Of a stretch of 52,369 nucleotides of DNA, positions 847 through 52,369 are shown piece by piece. Every line of letters begins with the position of its first letter. Position 1 is the first letter of the stretch. Under the pieces are notes generated by a model that was not told where the DNA came from, did not search any database, and worked only from the letters and a program-made list of their open reading frames with translations. The translations under genes were made by a program, and so were the position numbers. The DNA is from an uncultured Pseudomonadales bacterium (GTDB lineage Bacteria > Patescibacteriota > Microgenomatia > UBA1400 > PJMF01): contig CAYTIA010000006.1 in assembly GCA_964437755.1 (NCBI GenBank), positions 1 to 52,369 on the forward strand. The letters run 5' to 3'.

Positions 847-2010
847 ATGGATCAAACAATAAAACTTTTAAAAAAGAATTGGGCATTGCTCTTACTGTTT
901 TTTTCATACTTGGTCATTTTTCTATGGCAACAGCAAATTGGGGAACTTTTATCAAATACTGAGCTTAAGTTATTAATCGGCGACTCAATTTATCAAGGCT
1001 GGCTTGGACTAGTTGACTATTTGCAAGCCCATGTTTTGTTTTGTTTAATCCCAGCATTTTTTATTGCCGGTGCTGTAAATAGTTTAATCAGCTCTCAGAC
1101 AATCTTTAAATACTTTGGAGCTCAAAGTAAAAAATGGCTAGCTTACTCAATTGCCTCGGTAAGTGGCTTTTTAGTACAAGTTTGCTCCTGCACCATTTTG
1201 CCACTGTTTGCCGGAATTTGGAAAAAAGGCGCCGGTTTGGGAGTAGCCACTACATTTTTGTATGCTGGGCCGGCCGTCAATCTGTTGGCTTTAATCCTGA
1301 CGGGGCAAAGACTTGGTTGGGATTTTGCTATTTTTAGATTTGTAGTGTCAATTATTTTTGCCATCACCACTGGTTTAATTATGGAGCTTGTTTTTAAAGA
1401 CGAAAATCAAACAAAAGCAGAAAGTTTAGCAACTGTCGCAAATAACGAGATTTCAATAAATGGCAAAAAATCAAAGATCTTTTGGATAAACTTACTGGCT
1501 ATCTTGATAGTTGGCACCGCTCCCATTGAGTCTTCAATAAAAAGTACTGTTGTGTATTTACTCTCTGGTTTACAACTTATCCTTTCTTTCTCATGGCTTT
1601 CAAAAAATGATCGAGAAAACTGGTGGACAGAAACAACCAAATTCTTCAATCAAATTATCCCTTTATTGCTAGTAGGTGTATTTATTGCTTCATTCTTGAC
1701 TAATATGATTCCACAAGACAAATTTCAGGAGATTGCTGGTCAAAACACACTACTAACTAACTTTTTAGCAGTGCTATTTGGCGCTATCGCCTACTTTCCT
1801 GCTTTGGTTGAAGTGCCAATCGCCGAGAATTTCTTAAGATTGGGTATGAATAAAGGGCCACTTATGGCTTATCTGCTTTCTGATCCTGTTTTGTCATTGC
1901 AAGGACTGTTGATTATCCATAAACTAATTGGTACCAAAAAAACACTGGTTTATGCTTCAACAGTTGTAATATTAACTACCTTGGCCGGATTAATTTACGG
2001 AGGACTCTAA
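847..2010 (+). CDS. arsP: ArsP/DUF318 family permease
   Basis: HVLFCLIPAFFIAGA, VCSCTILPLF, FLYAGPAVN and YFPALVEVPI motifs; many hydrophobic segments; ars context. Confidence 0.85.
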   Translation: MDQTIKLLKKNWALLLLFFSYLVIFLWQQQIGELLSNTELKLLIGDSIYQGWLGLVDYLQAHVLFCLIPAFFIAGAVNSLISSQTIFKYFGAQSKKWLAYSIASVSGFLVQVCSCTILPLFAGIWKKGAGLGVATTFLYAGPAVNLLALILTGQRLGWDFAIFRFVVSIIFAITTGLIMELVFKDENQTKAESLATVANNEISINGKKSKIFWINLLAILIVGTAPIESSIKSTVVYLLSGLQLILSFSWLSKNDRENWWTETTKFFNQIIPLLLVGVFIASFLTNMIPQDKFQEIAGQNTLLTNFLAVLFGAIAYFPALVEVPIAENFLRLGMNKGPLMAYLLSDPVLSLQGLLIIHKLIGTKKTLVYASTVVILTTLAGLIYGGL

Positions 2011-2505
2011 ATGAAAAAATATTTGAGACCCTTAATTATATTACTAGCTATTGGAGGATTTATATTTTTTATTTCAAAATCCGACAACAAAAAACAAGTA
2101 TCAACTGCACAAGTTGCCACAGTGAATAGCGACGCTCCCACTTCAACAACTCCCTCAGAAACATTGGCTGTTAGCGATGCTGATCAAATAGTTATAGTTC
2201 ATTTTCACGGCACAGTACAATGCTGGTCTTGTATCGAGTTGGGGAAACTAGCTAAGGCGACTATTGAGGAAAGATTTCAGCCAGAATTAGCTGACAAAAA
2301 AATCATTTTTCAAGAAATCAACGGGGAGCTACCTGAAAACAAAGAAATAGTACAACTCTATCAAGCTAGAGGCTCATCACTATTTATCAACGCTATTAAA
2401 GACGATCAGAATCACATTCGTGAAGAAGTAAAAGCCTGGCAATTAATATCTCAAGAGGAAAAGTTTAAGGATTATCTTGAAAAAGAAATAAGAAAATTAT
2501 TGTAA
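2011..2505 (+). CDS. arsF: Membrane-anchored thioredoxin-fold protein, ArsF family
   Basis: N-terminal TM anchor, then VHFHGTVQCWSC (FHxxxxCxxC) motif; directly upstream of an ArsG-like gene. Confidence 0.75.
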   Translation: MKKYLRPLIILLAIGGFIFFISKSDNKKQVSTAQVATVNSDAPTSTTPSETLAVSDADQIVIVHFHGTVQCWSCIELGKLAKATIEERFQPELADKKIIFQEINGELPENKEIVQLYQARGSSLFINAIKDDQNHIREEVKAWQLISQEEKFKDYLEKEIRKLL

Positions 2506-2533
2506 ATTAAGGTTCGTCAAAAATAGGAGTCTC

Positions 2534-3262
2534 ATGGAATTAATCAATCAACTTTTAGAATCGACCACAGTTCCAATATTGGTGGCCTTCTTAATTGGAA
2601 TATTAACCTCAATTAGCCCCTGCCCACTGGCAACTAATATTAGTGCTGTGGCTTTTATCTCCAAAGAGATTTCTGATTCAAAAAGAGTACTTTTGAATGG
2701 TATCTATTATACTTTGGGAAGAATATTTACCTATACGTTATTAAGCTTTCTGATTAGTCTTGGTGTTTCCAGCTTTTCAATCGCTTCAATCTTTCAAAAA
2801 TGGGGAGATAAGGTTTTAGGCCCACTGTTAATTATCCTGGGCTTAATTATGCTCGATGTCATCAAAATACATCTAAAAACAGAAAACTCAAAAATTAATG
2901 ATCTCAAAAATCAATTATCGAAAAAAGGTTACTGGGGATCATTTGCTCTAGGAGCAATGTTTGCCTTAGCTTTTTGTCCTTACAGTGGAGTTTTGTTTTT
3001 TGGATTATTGATACCGTTAATAGCTTCTTCTGCTACCGCTCTAGTACTAGCACCAACTTTTGGCCTTGCCACCGGGCTTCCGGTAATTCTTTTCTCACTC
3101 GTATTAACCTTTGGTGTAAAACAGTTTGGGCAGATATTTAAGCTCACCCAAAAACTTGAGTTCTATGTTAGAAAAATCGTTGCGATAGTGTTACTATTAA
3201 CCGGCACTTATTATTTGAGATTTTTAATTATGATTATTTTCCGTCAGTTAACAACAAAATAA
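2534..3262 (+). CDS. arsG: CcdA-like membrane protein, ArsG family
   Basis: TSISPCPLATNISA and ALAFCPYSGVLFFG, the paired Cys-Pro motifs of CcdA/ArsG; SD AGGAG upstream. Confidence 0.8.
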   Translation: MELINQLLESTTVPILVAFLIGILTSISPCPLATNISAVAFISKEISDSKRVLLNGIYYTLGRIFTYTLLSFLISLGVSSFSIASIFQKWGDKVLGPLLIILGLIMLDVIKIHLKTENSKINDLKNQLSKKGYWGSFALGAMFALAFCPYSGVLFFGLLIPLIASSATALVLAPTFGLATGLPVILFSLVLTFGVKQFGQIFKLTQKLEFYVRKIVAIVLLLTGTYYLRFLIMIIFRQLTTK

Positions 3263-3337: not shown

Positions 3338-4027
3338 ATGTCAAATGAACTCTGTCAAAAGTCATCATACAGTAATAAATCTCTATTGTTTTTTTTAATT
3401 GCAATCGGAGTAATTGTTGGTAGTTTTTTTTGGACAAGAGGTTCGGCCAAAAGCATCGATCAAACAAACACTAATCTCATAACTTCGGCAAAACTTATCG
3501 TAGGCTATTGCCCTACAATGAAGGCTTATCTTCATCTTCTAGATCAACAAGCTTATGAATTTATTATGTTGCCATCATCGGCACTAGTGTTAGAACAGCT
3601 TAAATTAAATAAGATCGATCTAGCTTTGATTGGAAGAAAAGCAAAAACTCAGGAATTAAGTCATAATACTCAAGAGCAACTACTTATCGATGGTTATGTA
3701 CTAATAGGAATAGAAGATAAAACAATTGAAGCCGACCAGCTTTCTAATTACATTATTCATTCTTATCTACCAAGTAATGAGCTTGCTAACTTGTTCGCGA
3801 AAGAACAAACAATTGTTAAACATGATTATCTGCAATCTTCATTAAAGCAAATATCTACTCAAAATGATCTAGCAATACTTAAATGGTCAGAGTATGATGA
3901 ATCATTGTCACTGGTGACACCGGTTGTTGATCAGACAAAGGTTCTCTCATTTCGCTCTCCACATCTGTATTACTCAAAAGAGATCGCTAATGACATACAA
4001 CTAGCTAACAATCAAGATGAAATCTAA
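3338..4027 (+). CDS. Membrane-anchored hypothetical protein, possible periplasmic-binding-protein type 2 fold
   Basis: One N-terminal TM helix; LIVGYCPTM and LKLNKIDLALIGRK resemble PBP2/LysR-substrate-binding strands. Confidence 0.5.
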   Translation: MSNELCQKSSYSNKSLLFFLIAIGVIVGSFFWTRGSAKSIDQTNTNLITSAKLIVGYCPTMKAYLHLLDQQAYEFIMLPSSALVLEQLKLNKIDLALIGRKAKTQELSHNTQEQLLIDGYVLIGIEDKTIEADQLSNYIIHSYLPSNELANLFAKEQTIVKHDYLQSSLKQISTQNDLAILKWSEYDESLSLVTPVVDQTKVLSFRSPHLYYSKEIANDIQLANNQDEI

Positions 4028-5605: not shown

Positions 5606-8600
5606 TTATTTAGCTTTTCTCATCAATCCTCCTGTAGATTTTTTATCCCCAACCCCCCTCATTAACATTGATCTATAACTATTCCTTATCATTACTCTTT
5701 CATCATCGGAAATTCCTCTTCCCTGAAGGTAAATTGACTCAAGAGCCTGCATCGCTGACCTCCCACCCTTTCTCTCAACCACATCAAGGGCTAAAGCTAA
5801 ATCAGGTATTGATCCAACATATCCACTATTTTCATGATCAGTAACCAAAGCAAGATAACTGTAAGCTAACTGGATAAAGGTATTTTCACCCCCACGATTC
5901 TCTATTTGAAGCAAAAGAAGTTTTTTTTGAGCTGGAGTTAGGTGAGTTGCTCTATAAAAAGTCAGTGGCAGCTCATCAATCACATCTGAAGGTAAATACT
6001 TTACAACAGCCATTACTCTTTCAAATTCACGATCAGAAAAACATCTTTCCCTAATAGAACCAAGGAGTGCTGATGAAATAACAGAATATCTATAAAGACG
6101 GAGCTCAATTATTTTATTCATTATTAATATTGTTTCAATTTCTGAAAAAATATTGCCACTTATCCCAGAAATTAAACGAGCAAAACAACTAGGCGCACTT
6201 TCAAGACCATTTAAATTATCCACGGAAAAAAGCTTAAGAAAAAGAACCAAGGGTATCTTTCTTAATAAGCCCTGTGAAAATAAAGTTGCTAATTCATAAA
6301 GATCATCATAATCAGCAACTTTTAAGTATTGAAGAAAAATTACTAAAGCTAATTCATTATTAATTGGAATCAAGTCTGATTTTCTCAAAAGAACGAAAAA
6401 TATGAGTCTGTCACCATTCAACAACAGAATATTAATCACTTCTTCTAGATATTCACTTGAATAATGTGAATCGTTAATTCTTTCAGCCAACAACAGAAGC
6501 GAATCTCTTGTACCGTAACGACTAATAAAAAATAAAACTTCTTCAGGAGGAACAATTGAGATACTGCCCTCAATAAATAAATCTGTTAAGTAATAACATT
6601 GTCGACTGTCTCCAACTATTTTGAAAATATTCCACAATCTTAGTTTAGTTTTATCATCAACTACATTAGTTGAGATAGCTGTCAAACATCTCGATGAAGT
6701 TTTTGCTCCACCATGCTCTTGAATAATTGAGTAAACGTTTTCCAAATCATGGGGATTAATTGCTTTTTTTTCTAGAGCAACGATTAATGCTGCTGAGCTC
6801 TCATCTCCAGCTATTAAAGCAACAGTCTCAAGAACTTCTTGCGAGCATCCTTTGTCAGATTGATTTTTAATTAATGATGCAGCAGCTTCATCATTACCAA
6901 TATCAGAAATAATGGAAAGTATTCGCGAAACTTCTTCATCAGTTTCTGATAATGAATCCAGATTTGAAGCTAGCATTTTAGCTATTCCTGAATTACCTCT
7001 TTTCCTAGCAAGTTTTAAAATCGTCGCTTTCCTAGATAAATATTGATGTTTGTTTTCAATTAGATTATTCAAAGCAAGAAGAGCTGTTTTTGGTCCCCCA
7101 ATTGTTAAAGCTATATCCAAAACTTCTTCTCGATCTACTTTCAATAACCTCATTTTTACTTCAGAAGTCTCTTCAGCCAGATCAAGCAATGCAAGCGCCG
7201 TTCTGTCTCCCCCAACTTTTCTAGCGATAGTTAAAACATCAACTGTTGAAACATTTTGATACTGACCCGTACACATATTTTCAACCAATGGGGCAGTAGC
7301 GTTATCATCTCCGTATTCACCTATACTTTCTACAAAAATAGCTATTTCCTCTCTTTCAACAGTTGGTTCACATAAATACGCAGCTAGCTTTATTGAAGCA
7401 GACGGAGATGAAGCAATCTTAAAAATTCTCCTTGCAATAATCCTGGCTTCCCCAGTGATCATTTTATCTACATAAGCACCCGCAAGTTTCATCAAAGTAT
7501 AAGTATCAGTCGATGTAAATTTTTTTCTAAGCTTATCATCATTAGCAATTTTGTTTTCTAAAAATGATAATATCAACTCTTGAACACTTTCGGGAAAAGG
7601 ATTACTGTTAAATAGCTTACTAACCAATCCTTTGATTGCTTCAATATGACCAATCTTACAAATTACACCTGCAATTGCTAATGAATCTTGGTTAGAAGGA
7701 CTTAACACTTCCAACAATATTGAAGCTGATTCATCACCTCCAATTTTTTCAATTATAGGTAATACTTCCAGCCCTACTCTCCTATCAACAAAGTCGCTTG
7801 CCAATACGTTTCCAGCTGTTTCTCCCCCAAATGTCTCAATTATCCATAAATATTTATCTTTTTCTTCATCTGTATCCTTAAATTGTTTTGAGGATAATTC
7901 AATTGCCAACTGCGTTGTTAGTTGTCCTCTCACAACTTTTGCTTCAAATAGCTTGGACTCTGGAAAAGAGTTTGATATTGATTCAAGAATTTCATCCATT
8001 CCCACATTAGAAAACATATCTGAAACCTCAAGCATATTAAATGAAGATAGAGAAATTGGATTATCTAACACCATTAAAGCAGCTAAGCGCCCCTCTGGCG
8101 TATCAGTTTCACAAATTAAATATCCAAATACTAATTGCTGCCAAGAAAGAGGTGCTTCTGGATGAGTTAAAAGTAATTTCCTGTGTTCCTTTTGGCTGAG
8201 ATGATAATAGAGAGTAATCAAATTTGAAATGTTAATTGGATCAAGTCTTTGAAACCGATCCATACGAGGTATTGTTAAGCCCCTTACTTCCCACGTATAG
8301 ACACGTACAGCTGACCTGATCGGAGTTTGATTATTTACAACAACCTCTATTCCAGGAAGCTCGGGAGCTTTTTTATGGTCTCCTTGATCTAAATGAATGT
8401 GCAAACCTTCAGGACTAGCTCTGTCAAAAAACATAGCTAAATTACCCAATTGAGCAACATAATCAACTCCATATATTAAATCATCATCTAGTTTTCTCAA
8501 TTCAAGAGTATCGCCCATATCCCTGCCTGCCATAAAACCAGGACAGTCAGTTTTTCTAGATTCATCTCCATACTCAATTTCTAGACCAACCTTTCTTGGT

Positions 8601-25084: not shown

Positions 25085-26947
25085 CTAACTAAAAGATTCT
25101 ACTGTCGGCTTTTCTAAACGAATAAAATCTTGAGTACTCATTAAAATTGACCTATCTCTTTTCCCTACGTTAAAGGCTATCTCCTTTTGAGCTAATAATG
25201 ATTCATCAAGATAGGTTTTTATCTTTAAAACTGAACCAAAAGGTGGTATTGATCCGATTTGCAAACTCGTTTTCGCCTCAACGGTTTCTTTTGAAGCCAT
25301 AGCTATTTTTGAAGCTCCGACAAACTTTTGGAGCTTTTCGAGATTTGCTCTTTTATCTCCTGGCAACACCAATAAGGCATATTCACCATCTATATCAACC
25401 ACCAAAGCCTTTGCTGACTGTTCAAGAGTAGTTCCCCTTACCTCGGCCGCTTCTTGACTTGTTGTAACGGGTTGATGTACGAAATACCTAAAATTTGCCC
25501 CCAGATCTTTGAGTTTATTGATTATTTGATCATGAACAGAAAGACTGTCTTGATCAGTCACTCCAATACCCAATTCTGCCAGTTGTGCAGAATCAACCTC
25601 ATTGGGAGCATCCATAACCGCCGTTCTGCCTGAAGACGAGGTAGGAAAGGCGATCGTTTCTTTAATTGATTGTTCATTGGCCAACAACATTGCTAAACGA
25701 TCAAAGCCTAGTGCTATACCTCCATGAGGTGGAGTTCCAAGCTGGAAAGCCTCAAGAATATGGCCAATACTGTCTTCGGTTTCTTGATCTGAATAGCCCA
25801 TAATCTTAAAGGTAGATCTAAGAACATCGGGGCGATGAGCTCTTATACTTCCTCCACCAACCTCATAACCATTGCAGACTAAATCATATTGAGCAGTTTT
25901 AATCTGTTCTAAATTTTTTTGGTTGAGATGATCCTCTAAATACTCTTCTTGAGGGGTGCTGAATGGATTATGAGTAAAGGTCCAACCACTTTTACCATCT
26001 TGAACCTCAGCTGCATCTGTCTTATCAACCTTTTTGAAGAAAGGAAAATCAACTACCCAAACAAAAGCTAACACCCCACTCTTTTTCTCTTCTGGAGTAC
26101 GCAAATCAAATTTATCTGCACCATATTTATTAATTGCCTCTTGATAAGGCACAACTGGAAAAGTTTCTTGTTGAAGCACTCCACCAACTTTTTTAACCGC
26201 ATGCTTCACCATCTCTTCAACAAACGCCATCACTTCCTGTTGAGAAACAAAACTCATTTCTAAGTCAAGTTGGGTAAACTCAAATCCTCGATCTGCTCGA
26301 AGGTCTTCATCTCGAATACATTTGGCAAACTGAAAATATCTTTCAAAACCAGCTGTCATAAGCAGCTGTTTATACTGTTGTGGGCTTTGCGGCAAAGCAT
26401 AAAATTTACCTGGTTGAAAACGGGAAGGTACCAAGAAGTCTCTTGCTCCTTCTTTAGTTGACTTAGTTAAAAGTGGAGTTTCAATTTCTACGAAGTCCTT
26501 TTCAAGAAGCTTCTCGCGAAGAGCCTGCCCAAGCTCTGATCTCATTTTAAGATTGTGCTGTAGCCTTGGTCTTCTTAGATCTAGATAACGATACTTTAAT
26601 CGAGGTACTTCATTTATCTCCAAACCATCTCCATCTAAAGAAATTGGTAACTCAGTACAATCGTTGAGTAATTTGTACTGCTCAACCTCAAGCTCCACCT
26701 TGCCTGAATCTAAATCAGGATTAATATAGCGCTCATCTCTTTCTTTCACCTGCCCCGTAACTTCTATCACCGACTCGATTCTCAGTTCTGCCAATTTTTT
26801 AAAACCAACAATCTGGACCACTCCAGATCTATCTCTAAGATCAATAAAAGTAATCTTGCCATGATCACGCTTACTTTCCACCCAGCCTTGGAGTGTTACC
26901 TGTTGCCCTATTTTGGTTGAGATATCTCTTGAAAGTGTTCTTTGCAT
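25085..26947 (-). CDS. aspS: Aspartyl-tRNA synthetase lacking the GAD insertion, fused to a C-terminal YbaK/ProX-family domain
   Basis: RDHG..FIDLRD, YRYLDLRR, LPQSPQ.YKQ, RDEDLRADR and PPHGGIALGFDRL; the last about 150 aa carry SAKAL, GSIPPFG and FNVG YbaK-family motifs. Confidence 0.93.
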   Translation of the reverse strand: MQRTLSRDISTKIGQQVTLQGWVESKRDHGKITFIDLRDRSGVVQIVGFKKLAELRIESVIEVTGQVKERDERYINPDLDSGKVELEVEQYKLLNDCTELPISLDGDGLEINEVPRLKYRYLDLRRPRLQHNLKMRSELGQALREKLLEKDFVEIETPLLTKSTKEGARDFLVPSRFQPGKFYALPQSPQQYKQLLMTAGFERYFQFAKCIRDEDLRADRGFEFTQLDLEMSFVSQQEVMAFVEEMVKHAVKKVGGVLQQETFPVVPYQEAINKYGADKFDLRTPEEKKSGVLAFVWVVDFPFFKKVDKTDAAEVQDGKSGWTFTHNPFSTPQEEYLEDHLNQKNLEQIKTAQYDLVCNGYEVGGGSIRAHRPDVLRSTFKIMGYSDQETEDSIGHILEAFQLGTPPHGGIALGFDRLAMLLANEQSIKETIAFPTSSSGRTAVMDAPNEVDSAQLAELGIGVTDQDSLSVHDQIINKLKDLGANFRYFVHQPVTTSQEAAEVRGTTLEQSAKALVVDIDGEYALLVLPGDKRANLEKLQKFVGASKIAMASKETVEAKTSLQIGSIPPFGSVLKIKTYLDESLLAQKEIAFNVGKRDRSILMSTQDFIRLEKPTVESFS

Positions 26948-26999
26948 ATGGGGATATTATAGTAGAGAAGATCAGAAAAAAAATAGAGGATTTGTATAG

Positions 27000-27028
27000 T
27001 TGCACTCCCTTGTTATTTATGCTTTAAT
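27000..27028 (+). promoter_or_regulatory. Sigma70-like promoter with extended -10
   Basis: TTGCAC (27000-27005), 17 bp, then TGc-TTTAAT (27020-27028). Confidence 0.6.
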
Positions 27029-27036
27029 TTTCAAGA

Positions 27037-27117
27037 ATGAAAAATTGGCAACACCAACCTACTATTTGCAAGTTTAAGCTTGTTATTTACAAACAAGTGC
27101 CTATAGCGGTGGTGTAA
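27037..27117 (+). CDS. Putative leader peptide (26 aa) MKNWQHQPTICKFKLVIYKQVPIAVV
   Basis: ATG 8 nt after the -10 box; the last codons and stop overlap the antiterminator 5' strand. Confidence 0.45.
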   Translation: MKNWQHQPTICKFKLVIYKQVPIAVV

Positions 27118-27142
27118 CCAAAATATTAATCAATAAATCAAC

Positions 27143-27167
27143 ACCCCGCTACACAGCGGGGTTTTTT
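27143..27167 (+). terminator. Intrinsic terminator with a mutually exclusive antiterminator
   Basis: ACCCCGCT-ACAC-AGCGGGGT followed by a T run; 27104-27115 can pair with 27141-27151 instead. Confidence 0.75.
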
Positions 27168-27181
27168 GATGTAAGGCAAGT

Positions 27182-27346
27182 ATGACAAAAGAGTTTGCTC
27201 CAAAACAGATGGTTGAGAAAAAGATACCAACCCCAAAGCATAAACCATTTATTCGCCAAATGATGATTGATCAACCGTTTTGGCACGAAAGACAGCTAAT
27301 TGTTGAAAGCAGGCTGTTTGAGAATAAGAGAAACAAATCTGATTAG
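27182..27346 (+). CDS. Small hypothetical protein (54 aa), below the ORF-track cutoff
   Basis: MTKEFAPKQ...NKRNKSD-TAG with AAGG 5 nt upstream; fills the gap after the terminator. Confidence 0.45.
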   Translation: MTKEFAPKQMVEKKIPTPKHKPFIRQMMIDQPFWHERQLIVESRLFENKRNKSD

Positions 27347-27389
27347 ACCTTCAGGTTTCGATTTTTTTTTCAATGGTTATAATAATCTC

Positions 27390-28556
27390 ATGCGCAAAAC
27401 TTCAACTATTGCATTAATCGGTGCGATAATTCTTGCATTACTCTTGATAGTATTGACGTCATTGAAAGTTTGGAACATAAGTCTGATCTCATTTTTATCT
27501 CAGTCAACCAATGAACTAATTTCACCTTGGGTAGAAAATCCCCTTGAGCGTACTCATCCTCTAAATAAATACTCATTTACTAACTTAAAAAACCAACAAT
27601 ATCAAACAGATAAAATTACTTTAACCAGACTTGTTGAGGACAATGATGACTACTCTAGTTTTCTTTTTTCCTATAAAACCATGAATAAAACAATGACCGG
27701 TCTTGCTAATGTTCCCAAAATTTGTCAATCTATTTCATGCCCAGTAATTCTTTTAGTTAGAGGGTATGCAGACAAGGAACAGTATTCGCCAGGATTTGGT
27801 ACTAAAAATGCAGCTAAGGTGTTTGCTGATAATCAATACATTACTCTAGCCCCAGATTTTTTTGGTTTTGCTGGCGCAGACCCAGAACCGGAAGACACCT
27901 GGGAAGCCAGGTTCATTAAACCTATTAACATTATTGAGTTAATAAAAACTATTCAGACTAATCCTACAATCTATTCTGAAGTAATTGAAAATACTGAAAG
28001 TGAAGCTGCAGAAAATCATCACGAAACTCAAGTGACAAATAAGTATGCTCAGATAGATCCAAACAAGATAGGGATTTGGGCTCACAGCAATGGGGGTCAA
28101 ATTACATTAAGCGTTTTGCAAATTCTTAGCGAACCTATTCCAGCAACTCTATGGGCTCCGGTCACAGCACCTTTTCCTTATTCGCTTCTCTTTTTCACTA
28201 GAACTAATGAGGATGAGGGAAAAGAAGCAAGAGCTTGGATAGCAATCTTTGAAAAAGATTATGATGTTTTTGAGTTCAGCATCACTAAGCATATTGATTC
28301 ATTAACGGGACCTCTGCAAATTCATCATGGTTCTAGAGATAAAGATGCACTTCAAGAATGGTCTGATAGTTTTATCCAAATAATCGAGGTTGAAAATAAT
28401 AAACGAGCAGAAACTGATAACAATCATCAGCCTATTGAGTATCAATACTATATTTATCCAGATGCTGATCATAATTTATTACCAAGTCACAACTGGCAAC
28501 AGGCTATTCAAAGAGATTTACTCTTTTTTAAAGAGAAGGGAATAAGTCATGAATAA
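27390..28556 (+). CDS. Membrane-anchored alpha/beta hydrolase (S9-like)
   Basis: AHSNGG nucleophile elbow, HHGSRD (Asp), ADHN (His); TM at the N-terminus from ATG 27390. Confidence 0.88.
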   Translation: MRKTSTIALIGAIILALLLIVLTSLKVWNISLISFLSQSTNELISPWVENPLERTHPLNKYSFTNLKNQQYQTDKITLTRLVEDNDDYSSFLFSYKTMNKTMTGLANVPKICQSISCPVILLVRGYADKEQYSPGFGTKNAAKVFADNQYITLAPDFFGFAGADPEPEDTWEARFIKPINIIELIKTIQTNPTIYSEVIENTESEAAENHHETQVTNKYAQIDPNKIGIWAHSNGGQITLSVLQILSEPIPATLWAPVTAPFPYSLLFFTRTNEDEGKEARAWIAIFEKDYDVFEFSITKHIDSLTGPLQIHHGSRDKDALQEWSDSFIQIIEVENNKRAETDNNHQPIEYQYYIYPDADHNLLPSHNWQQAIQRDLLFFKEKGISHE

Positions 28557-29016
28557 AGCCTCATCAAGATTGAAATATAATCCAAAATCCTTTGTCTCTA
28601 AACCCATCAAGGCCTCAAGTAGAATTAAAAGGAAATTAACAAAAAATGCTGATAAAAACAAAAATAATTCAATTATTCTTAATGCTTTAAAACATTATTT
28701 TGAACATCTGCCAACATTAGGAATGGCTATAGTGCTGTGTATAGCTACTATCTTTTTCCTGAAAGAAGTTCCACCAAACTCTGTTAGACATTTTCTCTTA
28801 CCCAACACTTATCTGCCTTTTTTATTCTTAATTTTTTTGAGCAGTTTATTCTTATTAAGTTTTGTCTTTTTAAATAGGAGAGTTGGTTTTTTACTCTCAC
28901 TGACCATTACCACCTACATATTTTTAAAAGTACAGCAAGTAATTATGGAACCCTGGCTATTAATAACACTGGCAATAGCTATACTCGCTTCACCCATAAC
29001 TATATTAATATTGTGA
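28549..29016 (+). CDS. Membrane protein with a basic N-terminal tail
   Basis: K/R-rich N-terminus followed by about four TM helices; overlaps the hydrolase stop. Confidence 0.7.
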   Translation: MNKASSRLKYNPKSFVSKPIKASSRIKRKLTKNADKNKNNSIILNALKHYFEHLPTLGMAIVLCIATIFFLKEVPPNSVRHFLLPNTYLPFLFLIFLSSLFLLSFVFLNRRVGFLLSLTITTYIFLKVQQVIMEPWLLITLAIAILASPITILIL

Positions 29017-29427
29017 AGAAGGATATTGTGGAGGAGGAGTTGGAGTTTCAATTGGAGCAACAAGAGTTGTTTCAGTACCCTTCCTTGCAGTTGGCTTTCT
29101 TGAGAGAAGGATACAACATTGTTCATAGAGTCTAATTGCATCTTCGGGATTTACCAATGGCGAAGTTAAATAATTCATGCATAATTTAAGAATTCTTTTT
29201 TCTTTGGTTATGTGCGAAACATCAGCCGTATATGGAGCAACTGTTGAAGTTGGAGGAGTCTCGACTTGAGCTGAAGCAATTCCTGAGTTGAATAAAGACA
29301 TCGCTACTAAAGCAATGGGGATGCCTGCTTTCAGCAAAACACGACAGACCTCTGCTCTAACTTGTTCAAATAATTGCTTATAGTCTTCTATCTTTGAATT
29401 ATTAATAGTTAAATTTTCCGTTCTCAT
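29005..29427 (-). CDS. Hypothetical protein with an internal signal-like segment
   Basis: Hydrophobic IPIALVAMSLF...ASA segment; P/T-rich linkers. Confidence 0.5.
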   Translation of the reverse strand: MRTENLTINNSKIEDYKQLFEQVRAEVCRVLLKAGIPIALVAMSLFNSGIASAQVETPPTSTVAPYTADVSHITKEKRILKLCMNYLTSPLVNPEDAIRLYEQCCILLSRKPTARKGTETTLVAPIETPTPPPQYPSSQY

Positions 29428-29593
29428 TTTTTTTTGATTTTCAAATTTCTAATTAATCTAACAAGTTACTTATCAATTACATATTCTCTTACTTTTATTT
29501 ATAAATGTCAATAAATAAATCAAACTAGATTATAATGATAAAGAGCATGTAATCTGGAAATAAACTCAACAAATATGAGATAATGCAATATCT

Positions 29594-31018
29594 ATGACTA
29601 ATAACTTTTTTATTACTACCACTCTGCCATATGTCAATGCTGAACCACATATTGGCTTCGGACTTGAAATAGTCGAGGCTGATGTTATCGCCCGCTATCA
29701 AAAAAGTCTTGGAAAAGAAATAATTTTTAATACTGGCACTGATGAACATGGCCAAAAAATCTATCAAAAAGCAGTAGAAACCAATCAAGATCCTCAAGAT
29801 TATTGCAATCAATACGCAGCCAAGTTTCAGGACTTAAAAAAGCTATTAAATCTAGATTACACTCATTTTATCCGTACTACTAATGCCAATCATCAGCAAG
29901 CTGCTCAAGCGTTTTGGTTAAAATCAAAAAAATCTAGAGATATTTACAAAGCTAAATATCAAGTAAAATATTGTGTTGGTTGTGAGCTTGAAAAAACTGA
30001 AAGTGAACTGATAGATGGAAAATGTCCTATTCATCCTCATCTTGATCTTGAAGAAAGAGATGAAGAAAACTACTTTTTTAGGTTCTCAAAATATCAAAAA
30101 CTGTTATTAGAGTTTTTAGAAAAAAATCCAGACTTCGTCCAGCCAGAATCAAAGATGAAGGAGGCAATAGCTTTCGTCAAGTCTGGTTTAAAAGATTTTA
30201 GTATCTCCAGATTAAAAAGTAAGATGCCTTGGGGCATTCCAGTTCCAGATGATGATAAACATGTGATGTACGTCTGGTTTGACGCGTTGGTTAACTATGT
30301 ATCTACTCTTGGATGGCCAACAAACTCCCAAGCCTTCAATCAATATTGGCCAGCTGTTCAAGTAGCCGGAAAAGATAATCTAAGACAACAAGCCATTATG
30401 TGGCAAGCAATGCTGATGTCTGCAAACTTACCTCCATCAAAAAAAATATTAATCAATGGTTTTATCAGTATTAACGGCCAAAAGATGAGTAAATCACTAG
30501 GCAACGTTATCTCTCCCGAAGAGATGGTGGCAAGATATGGTATCGACGCCACCAGATTTCTACTGATTTCACTAGGCACATTTAACGAAGATATGGATGT
30601 TAGCTGGGAAAGACTAGATGAAAATTATACCGCTAACCTCGCCAACGGAATAGGCAACTTATGTTCAAGAGTTGCCAAGATGTCAGCTGATGAAAAAATA
30701 GTTTTTTCTGAAAAGAAATCAGAAAAACACGATGAAGTTCTAGATAAGTATCATCAACTAATGGATCAGTACGAACTCTCAAAATCTCTAGAACTAATTA
30801 TCGATCTGATTAAAAAAACTGACTTATTTTTAAGTCAAAATGAGCCTTGGAAAAAATCCGGAGAAGAGAAAGTTAAAATACTGCTTTCTGCCATTTCCTA
30901 TATCAGAGTAATTAGCAAGATGCTTTCACCATTTACTCCAGAATTATCAATGACAGTTCTAGATAGTTTTCAAGAGCAAATTAAGCCTTTGGCACCTTTA
31001 TTTCCAAGGCTAAGTTAA
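29594..31018 (+). CDS. metG: Methionyl-tRNA synthetase (short form)
   Basis: PYVNAEPHIG, GTDEHGQKI, YVWFDAL and KMSKSLGN motifs. Confidence 0.97.
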   Translation: MTNNFFITTTLPYVNAEPHIGFGLEIVEADVIARYQKSLGKEIIFNTGTDEHGQKIYQKAVETNQDPQDYCNQYAAKFQDLKKLLNLDYTHFIRTTNANHQQAAQAFWLKSKKSRDIYKAKYQVKYCVGCELEKTESELIDGKCPIHPHLDLEERDEENYFFRFSKYQKLLLEFLEKNPDFVQPESKMKEAIAFVKSGLKDFSISRLKSKMPWGIPVPDDDKHVMYVWFDALVNYVSTLGWPTNSQAFNQYWPAVQVAGKDNLRQQAIMWQAMLMSANLPPSKKILINGFISINGQKMSKSLGNVISPEEMVARYGIDATRFLLISLGTFNEDMDVSWERLDENYTANLANGIGNLCSRVAKMSADEKIVFSEKKSEKHDEVLDKYHQLMDQYELSKSLELIIDLIKKTDLFLSQNEPWKKSGEEKVKILLSAISYIRVISKMLSPFTPELSMTVLDSFQEQIKPLAPLFPRLS

Positions 31019-52252: not shown

Positions 52253-52284
52253 ATTCTGAATATATTTTTCACCATAATTAATTG

Positions 52285-52369
52285 CGGAAGGGGTGGGACT
52301 CGAACCCACGAAGCCCGTGAGGGCGCCGGTTTTCGAAACCGGTGCAATAGACCGCTATGCGACCCTTCC
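52285..52369 (-). tRNA. tRNA-Ser (anticodon CGA)
   Basis: Acceptor stem GGAAGGG/CCCTTCC, anticodon arm CCGGT-TTCGAAA-ACCGG, long variable arm, GGTTCGAGTCC T arm, G discriminator; CCA not encoded. Confidence 0.95.

Follow-up and report, generated by a model that had tools for sequence, protein, structure and literature searches.

Organization of the element

Positions 1 to 52,369 of contig CAYTIA010000006.1 (the window) were analysed; they belong to a Patescibacteria genome of low G+C content (about 35%) that occurs in sludge metagenomes. Between its minus-strand aspS gene and a plus-strand unit composed of an open reading frame (ORF) of 54 amino acids (aa), a hydrolase gene, and the gene of a 155-aa membrane protein, we found a compact element that is probably a ribosome-mediated (leader-peptide) transcription attenuator (Table 1). 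The anatomy of the element is conserved among its relatives, the two strands of its antiterminator covary, and its geometry under folding places a switch within reach of a ribosome on the short ORF. It thus displays four structural features of leader-peptide transcription attenuators, namely a short ORF at the 5' end, an intrinsic terminator, a maintained antiterminator, and the corresponding placement of the ORF. The preliminary description of this region had outlined a promoter TTGCAC-17-TGcTTTAAT, a 26-codon upstream ORF, an 11-bp antiterminator pairing with one bulge, and a terminator sharing one strand with it. All four are present, the pairing is borne out by folding, by a shuffle test, and by compensatory changes, and the tail of the terminator consists of six T. 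It had also named conservation of the upstream ORF and of the pairing in related genomes as a check; both are conserved, and the antiterminator contains three compensatory pairs.

Table 1. Features of the element and of the genes around it (positions in the window, unless another locus is named)
Feature	Position	Strand	Description
-35 box	27000-27005	+	TTGCAC, read directly; TTGC invariant in a six-sequence alignment
Extended -10 box	27020-27028	+	TGcTTTAAT; TGc at 27020-27022, TTTAAT at 27023-27028
Leader ORF	27037-27117	+	MKNWQHQPTICKFKLVIYKQVPIAVV; 26 codons, leaderless-type; stop UAA (TAA at 27115-27117)
Region 1	27051-27065	+	ACACCAACCUACUAU; candidate strand of the anti-antiterminator, within codons 5-10; minimum-energy fold pairs it with region 2
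Apical hairpin P2	27078-27098	+	GCUUGUU-AUUUACA-AACAAGU; inside the ORF, 7-bp stem
Region 2	27104-27115	+	UAGCGGUGGUGU; antiterminator 5' strand; last four sense codons and first base of the stop codon
A-rich spacer	27118-27140	+	Poorly conserved; about 23-32 nt in all versions (alignments)
Region 3	27141-27151	+	ACACCCCGCUA; antiterminator 3' strand; overlaps the terminator 5' arm
Intrinsic terminator	27143-27168 (hairpin 27143-27162)	+	ACCCCGCT-ACAC-AGCGGGGT followed by U6; terminator scan
54-aa protein gene	27182-27346	+	PFWHERQ motif; Shine-Dalgarno-like UAAGG at 27172-27176; proposed first regulated gene
Alpha/beta hydrolase gene	27390-28556	+	Membrane-anchored; borderline Peptidase_S9 match
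155-aa protein gene	28549-29016	+	Predicted membrane protein; start overlaps the hydrolase gene end; last co-directional gene of the unit
aspS	25085-26947	-	Divergent from the element; AspRS fused to a YbaK-type editing domain
L038, gene after the terminator	1553-2962		469 aa; sub-threshold RelA_SpoT nucleotidyltransferase match (E 3.8e-5, 24.4 bits vs. cut-off 27)
L044, ORF after the terminator	6936-7445	-	169 aa, unrelated

Anchoring on AspRS yielded no copies of the element, after which the hydrolase was used as the anchor for relatives. The element was found through hydrolase-anchored loci, small-protein-anchored loci, and a structured DNA pattern search. In the JGI metagenomes this pattern returned nine loci, three of which are genuine (L044, L046, and L047); the remaining six were rejected as ordinary gene ends followed by terminators. 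Eleven distinct versions were compared, namely the window, L031, L035, L032, L039, L038, L044, L051, L053, L055, and L057, and the same hydrolase operon lies downstream of the element in every one of them. The identical element sequence is present in independent sludge assemblies. Close relatives differ far less between the -10 box and the U tract than they do in the protein gene that comes next. A covariance model detected no second copy of the element in the window or in 25 other Patescibacteria loci, and ARAGORN detected no tRNA or tmRNA at the element.

Promoter and leader ORF

The -35 and -10 boxes are separated by 17 nt, and this spacing is constant in all relatives with upstream sequence. 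L055 begins at a contig edge just before the ATG, so its promoter is not visible. The hexamer TTTAAT of the -10 box is invariant in nine versions and reads TTAAAT in L057. Two types of promoter can be distinguished: one with TTGCA- and a TG-extended -10 box, and the other with a perfect TTGACA without the TG, which is found in the more distant relatives L051, L053, and L057. A consensus promoter scan did not list the promoter of the element, because TTGCAC matches TTGACA at only three of the six positions.

The ATG of the leader ORF starts 8 nt past the -10 box (8-10 nt across the versions) and is invariant in all versions amid variable flanks, with no Shine-Dalgarno sequence ahead of it. The frame is open in all 11 versions over 23-26 codons, compared with zero to four stops in each of the other two frames, and the differences in length amount to 3 nt and 9 nt, all multiples of three. 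In every version the stop codon (UAA or UAG) stands immediately 3' of region 2, which reads GCGGUG(G/U)UGU or GCGGUAUUGU. Substitutions are distributed over the three codon positions at 67:80:94, third positions varying most, and 25% of the differing codons are synonymous in the leader frame versus 16-17% in the other two frames. Some parts of the peptide recur, such as QH(T/S) and KF(I)L, with some synonymous changes, and the end AV(V/L) is found in 11 of 11 versions; the complete C-terminus is IAVV in the window and IAAV, VAVV, VTVV, KAVV, MAVL, or LAVL in the relatives. Across the 11 peptides there is no repeated residue and none that is universal in codons 2-20, and Pfam and NCBIfam scans gave no match to any of them.

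Leaderless-type starts were observed at several genes of the window: aspS has TATAAT-8-ATG, the hydrolase gene has TATAAT-6-ATG, and metG has GATAAT-9-ATG, against a background of 3.8% of all ATGs with a TATAAT-like box at such a distance. Many first-in-operon genes carry a TATAAT-like box 6-10 nt before the ATG without a Shine-Dalgarno sequence, including those at 27378-27392 (hydrolase), 26945-26962 on the minus strand (aspS), and 29576-29596 (metG), and the genes starting at 3338, 37443, and 10461. This pattern suggests that leaderless mRNAs are widespread in the organism. Since leaderless-looking genes are frequent in this genome, a leaderless upstream ORF is in character.

Antiterminator and terminator

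The segment TAGCGGTGGTGT of region 2 is complementary to ACACCCCGCTA of region 3 over 11 bp with one bulged U. Formed as a hairpin, this pairing reaches -14.9 kcal/mol in the window; as a duplex it reaches -18.3 kcal/mol, compared with -7.8 ± 2.3 kcal/mol in 2000 dinucleotide shuffles of the leader, none of which was as good. The duplex energy is matched by five of the 2087 natural 99-nt windows taken from the same 52 kb, and the z-score of the duplex lies between -1.8 and -4.2 in the nine versions tested. The terminator stem consists of eight pairs, six of which are G-C, closed by the ACAC loop, with a hairpin energy of -14.8 kcal/mol. Across the versions the antiterminator hairpins range from -11 to -22.5 kcal/mol and the terminator hairpins from -12.5 to -17.4 kcal/mol, and in most versions the stability of the antiterminator is equal to or above that of the terminator.

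When the versions are aligned over region 2 through the U tract, the antiterminator strands are paired in 95% of the cells, compared with 39-54% when the partners are slid by 1-3 columns. Three pairs have changed in a compensatory manner (A-U/G-C; G-C/U-A; and G-C/G-U/U-A), giving a covariation score of 0.198 versus 0.079 in shuffles, with none of 500 shuffles reaching 0.198. In an alignment fitted to the structural model, the terminator is 95% paired and contains three covarying pairs. Where the end of the peptide changes from AVV to AVL (GUG to UUG), the change is accompanied by a C-to-A substitution in the non-coding region 3, so that RNA pairing is sufficient to explain the conserved end of the peptide.

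Upstream hairpin

The preliminary description had missed a pairing further upstream, in which 27103-27115 pairs with 27051-27065 inside the ORF to form a long hairpin (P1, region 1:2) capped by the apical hairpin P2. The folding z-score is -4.9 for the whole 136-nt RNA and -2.8 for its 5' part. In the fitted alignment, P1 is 86% paired and P2 80% paired, with double changes in four of the seven P2 pairs; de novo consensus folding of this alignment recovered the terminator alone. By folding, L051, L053, L038, and L044 build a hairpin at the place of P2 from different sequence, and a P2-like hairpin can be read in L055 and L057 too. P1 capped by P2 is described here as a moderately supported candidate for an anti-antiterminator hairpin, and in such a model P2 could possibly serve as a pause hairpin for RNA polymerase.

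Ribosome position and the proposed switch

The consequences of ribosome position were computed by folding the RNA under a 27-nt footprint, with the transcript either cut before the 3' arm of the terminator (region 4) or at full length. In the truncated transcript, the antiterminator forms when the P-site holds essentially any codon from 1 to about 19 (L053 and L055 have slightly fewer such positions), and region 2 is masked when the ribosome stands on the last 6-7 codons. All 11 versions show this pattern. With the full-length RNA at equilibrium, the antiterminator wins in 5 of 11 versions. The attenuation logic that had been proposed for the element, with the position of the ribosome deciding between the two structures, thus receives support from this computed geometry together with the joint conservation of the parts, the compensatory changes, and the placement of the stop codon.

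On this basis the following course of events is proposed. Transcription would start at about 27035-27037 from the extended -10 promoter, giving an RNA that begins at the AUG or 1-2 nt before it, and the 26-codon ORF would be translated without a Shine-Dalgarno sequence. If the ribosome occupied the last 6-7 codons or the stop codon while the polymerase was making regions 3 and 4, region 2 would lie inside the ribosome, the terminator would form, and a leader RNA of roughly 133 nt would be released. If the ribosome lagged or stalled anywhere in codons 1 to about 19, region 2 would be free and would capture region 3 first; the terminator would then be blocked, and transcription would continue into the 54-aa PFWHERQ gene and towards the hydrolase operon. 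Less certainly, the region 1:2 hairpin capped by P2 may keep an untranslated leader terminating and may pause the polymerase.

Because the peptide repeats no residue and none is universal in the critical codons, the signal is presumably a general slowing of elongation, through amino-acid shortage or ribosome inhibition, rather than the supply of one amino acid. The Val/Ile-rich end of the ORF had previously been pointed out. These codons do exist, but they give no pointer to the signal: they form the antiterminator strand, and a stall there would favour termination. A reading of the C-terminal codons as sensors of Val/Ile starvation was accordingly rejected on the geometry of the footprint-constrained folds.

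Downstream genes

Only 13 nt separate the U tract from the start of the 54-aa gene, too little for this gene to have its own promoter, so that it is reachable only by read-through. Its homologues are 52-73 aa long and have only PFW(H/Y)E(R/K)Q(L/F) in common, the codons of the motif showing synonymous third-position variation. The PFWHERQ family comprises 11 proteins among 5.8 billion, and its members lie upstream of the hydrolase wherever a longer contig is available. Pfam and NCBIfam scans gave no family match for the 54-aa protein. The hydrolase gene has a conserved -10-like TATAAT of its own at 27378-27383, 6 nt before the ATG, and the gene of the 155-aa membrane protein occupies the same place after it in the relatives. 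As had been noted earlier, no biosynthetic operon follows the element; the target, which had been left as unknown, is no longer wholly so, the nearest downstream gene being the 54-aa PFWHERQ gene, with the hydrolase operon behind it.

In the lineage of L038 and L044 the DNA after the terminator has been replaced, and the nucleotide sequences of the two cease to be homologous immediately behind the element; each is followed by a different gene (Table 1). In L054, the gene immediately preceding the hydrolase gene encodes a tyrosine integrase (844-1665), and no element was detected at this place by the covariance model. Further downstream in the window, metG stands behind a convergent gene. A 140-aa ORF on the minus strand (29005-29427) interrupts the otherwise co-directional array of hydrolase, membrane protein, metG, and tatD; L032 has a 134-aa equivalent, and no such ORF is present in L031, L038, L039, L051, and L053. 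A tRNA-Ser with anticodon CGA (52284-52369, minus strand) closes the window.

Genomic context on the aspS side

AspRS-anchored loci share sequence with the window only over 26948-26993 and then diverge, the homology ending at about 26994, and in the AspRS-anchored genome-contig loci no copy of the element adjoins aspS. The linkage with aspS is lost exactly at 26994-26998, and in several relatives other genes are inserted at that point. Therefore, the element belongs to the downstream gene unit. The short gap that separates the element from the aspS promoter is a hot spot for insertions (L001 1015-1160, L031 1703-3608, and L032 2423-3603); one relative has an aldo/keto reductase gene there, and another has four small genes. 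In two runs, the Logan contigs end at 26990-26996, which suggests strain variants within one community. At its C-terminus, the product of aspS has an aminoacyl-tRNA editing domain of the YbaK/ProX type (PF04073, residues 491-611), and this 620-aa fusion is kept in the relatives.

Points against the attenuator and alternative explanations

Several results weigh against a leader-peptide attenuator. The covariation amounts to about three independent events among 11 related sequences, and the coding signal of the leader at the level of substitutions is modest; between L038 and L044, all five differences in the leader are non-synonymous. Runs of identical codons are absent from the leader ORF, and none of the downstream genes is biosynthetic, which places the element outside the amino-acid-specific subclass. 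The energy of the region 1:2 duplex is no better than that of shuffles, and in truncated leaders without a ribosome the antiterminator is preferred at equilibrium in 8 of 11 versions, so that the classical branch in which a lack of translation leads to termination is not established. In addition, the full-length RNA of the window keeps its terminator at any ribosome position at equilibrium. Since equilibrium folding of the full-length RNA does not switch this version, the decision would have to be kinetic and co-transcriptional, as in classical attenuation. A search of RNA-seq runs found none that contained the window locus. Finally, the different genes after the terminator in L038 and L044 would also fit a free-standing small gene.

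That last explanation, in which the element encodes a small RNA of roughly 133 nt and/or a trans-acting peptide of 23-26 aa, with a terminator that just closes this transcript, promoters of their own for the downstream genes, and a region 2:3 pairing of no regulatory role, seems to us unlikely, though it has several observations in its favour. The element is kept while the gene behind it is replaced (by one of 469 aa in L038 and one of 169 aa in L044), the DNA on its upstream side is a variable insertion site as well, a conserved -10 box precedes the hydrolase gene itself, the complete RNA has a good fold (z = -4.9), and parts of the peptide, QH(T/S) and KF(I)L, recur with some synonymous changes. 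For a stable RNA, however, there is no reason why compensatory changes should preserve a pairing in competition with its own terminator, and the 54-aa gene of the window, with its Shine-Dalgarno-like sequence, begins 13 nt past the U tract without a promoter of its own. Neither the peptide nor the RNA matches a family. Moreover, this explanation does not exclude attenuation, because trans action is also known for RNAs derived from attenuators and for leader peptides (PMC6614838, PMC7298713). A somewhat less probable arrangement is a terminator/antiterminator switch set by a trans-acting factor bound to the leader hairpin, be it an RNA-binding protein, a small ligand, or a tRNA, with the frame being incidental. 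The conserved alternative pairings, the internal loops within the long P1/P2 hairpin, the absence of regulatory codon runs, and the weak coding signal are all compatible with it. Such a factor would leave unexplained why the AUG is invariant and keeps a fixed spacing from the -10 box, why indels of 3 and 9 nt leave the frame open, and why five lineages have the stop codon fixed at the border of region 2; nor was a conserved aptamer-like core found, as the hairpin sequence outside regions 2-4 is not conserved between distant versions, or an Rfam family at threshold. A riboswitch was rejected on the same two findings.

The end of the peptide invites another thought, that of a nascent-peptide arrest sensor whose C-terminal (I/V/L/M/K)-A-V-(V/L)-stop arrests the ribosome in response to a small molecule, e.g., a macrolide-like antibiotic. 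IAVV, with which the peptide of the window ends, is the reported stalling motif of the erm(A) L1 leader (PMC12698558), all 11 versions keep AV(V/L), and the downstream genes include an esterase-like alpha/beta hydrolase. Nevertheless, exact IAVV is confined to the window with variants in the relatives, the V-to-L change is compensated in region 3, so that RNA pairing explains the conservation, and no resistance-type gene (methyltransferase or ABC-F) follows the element. What makes this sensor highly improbable is also its direction, as a ribosome arrested at the stop codon masks region 2 and would favour termination instead of induction. More broadly, there is a small chance that the peptide (QH(T/S)...KF(I)L...AV(V/L)) works as a nascent-chain sensor of a small molecule or of a compound that targets the ribosome, and/or that the released RNA of about 133 nt and the 26-aa peptide act in trans. 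Nascent-chain sensing or trans action would, if true, give an ultra-small and ribosome-poor cell of the candidate phyla radiation a dedicated monitor of translation stress; beside this idea we mention the RelA/SpoT-like gene directly behind the element in L038. Taken together, the ribosome-mediated attenuator remains the reading that we favour for the element.

Significance and comparison with known systems

To our knowledge, gene regulation is almost unexplored in Patescibacteria (the candidate phyla radiation), of which few members have been cultivated. Our literature searches found no paper on a leader-peptide attenuator in this group, and the present element appears to be a first well-supported candidate for one. 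It is a compact and comparatively well-supported candidate, in which covariation, a conserved frame, and a fitting geometry come together. As a mechanism it is classical, so the gain is one in reach and annotation, not in principle. A tiny and narrowly distributed PFWHERQ protein and a surface hydrolase would be placed under translation-sensitive control.

Searches of Rfam with gathering and permissive thresholds, including Trp_leader, Thr_leader, and rnk_pseudo, gave best scores of 17.7-25.5 bits versus thresholds of 41-55 bits, mainly through the terminator. For Trp_leader (RF00513) and Thr_leader (RF00506) the terminator-driven scores were 19.6 versus 41 and 17.7 versus 55 bits (gathering), respectively. 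The enterobacterial trp, thr, and his leaders nevertheless share with the element the 1:2, 2:3, and 3:4 logic, a G+C-rich terminator followed by a U tract, and a stop codon placed so that a terminating ribosome masks region 2. They differ in having an ORF led by a Shine-Dalgarno sequence and tandem regulatory codons, neither of which is present here.

Leaders of the erm type (the erm(A) L1 IAVV class) resemble the element in their short ORF without codon runs, in their non-biosynthetic target, and in the IAVV end of the window's peptide. In contrast to these, the motif is not conserved as a peptide here, a stall at this site is predicted to terminate and not to induce, and no resistance gene lies downstream. 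In mycobacteria, leaderless polycysteine short ORFs form the first cistron of an operon, and ribosome stalling on them controls the downstream genes (bioRxiv 10.1101/834739). The element likewise has a leaderless-type short ORF as its first cistron, on which stalling would control the genes behind it. The mycobacterial ORFs, however, act on translation via a sequestered ribosome-binding site and sense cysteine by a tract of Cys codons, whereas the output of the present element would be an intrinsic transcription terminator and its ORF has no codon tract. Action in trans by an attenuator RNA and by a leader peptide has been described for the Sinorhizobium trp attenuator.

The nearest described architecture is the ilvBNC attenuator of Corynebacterium glutamicum, for which a leaderless leader peptide, IlvL, and a three-hairpin model have been reported (PMC11857589). 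No sequence similarity between the two was seen. The ilvBNC leader contains many codons for branched-chain amino acids and acts on its cognate biosynthetic operon, unlike the present element with its non-biosynthetic targets and no codon run. Both have an mRNA that begins, by prediction in our case, without a leader ahead of the leader-peptide ORF, and in both the position of the ribosome on a short ORF would select among mutually exclusive hairpins, namely an anti-antiterminator, weakly supported in our case, an antiterminator, and an intrinsic terminator.

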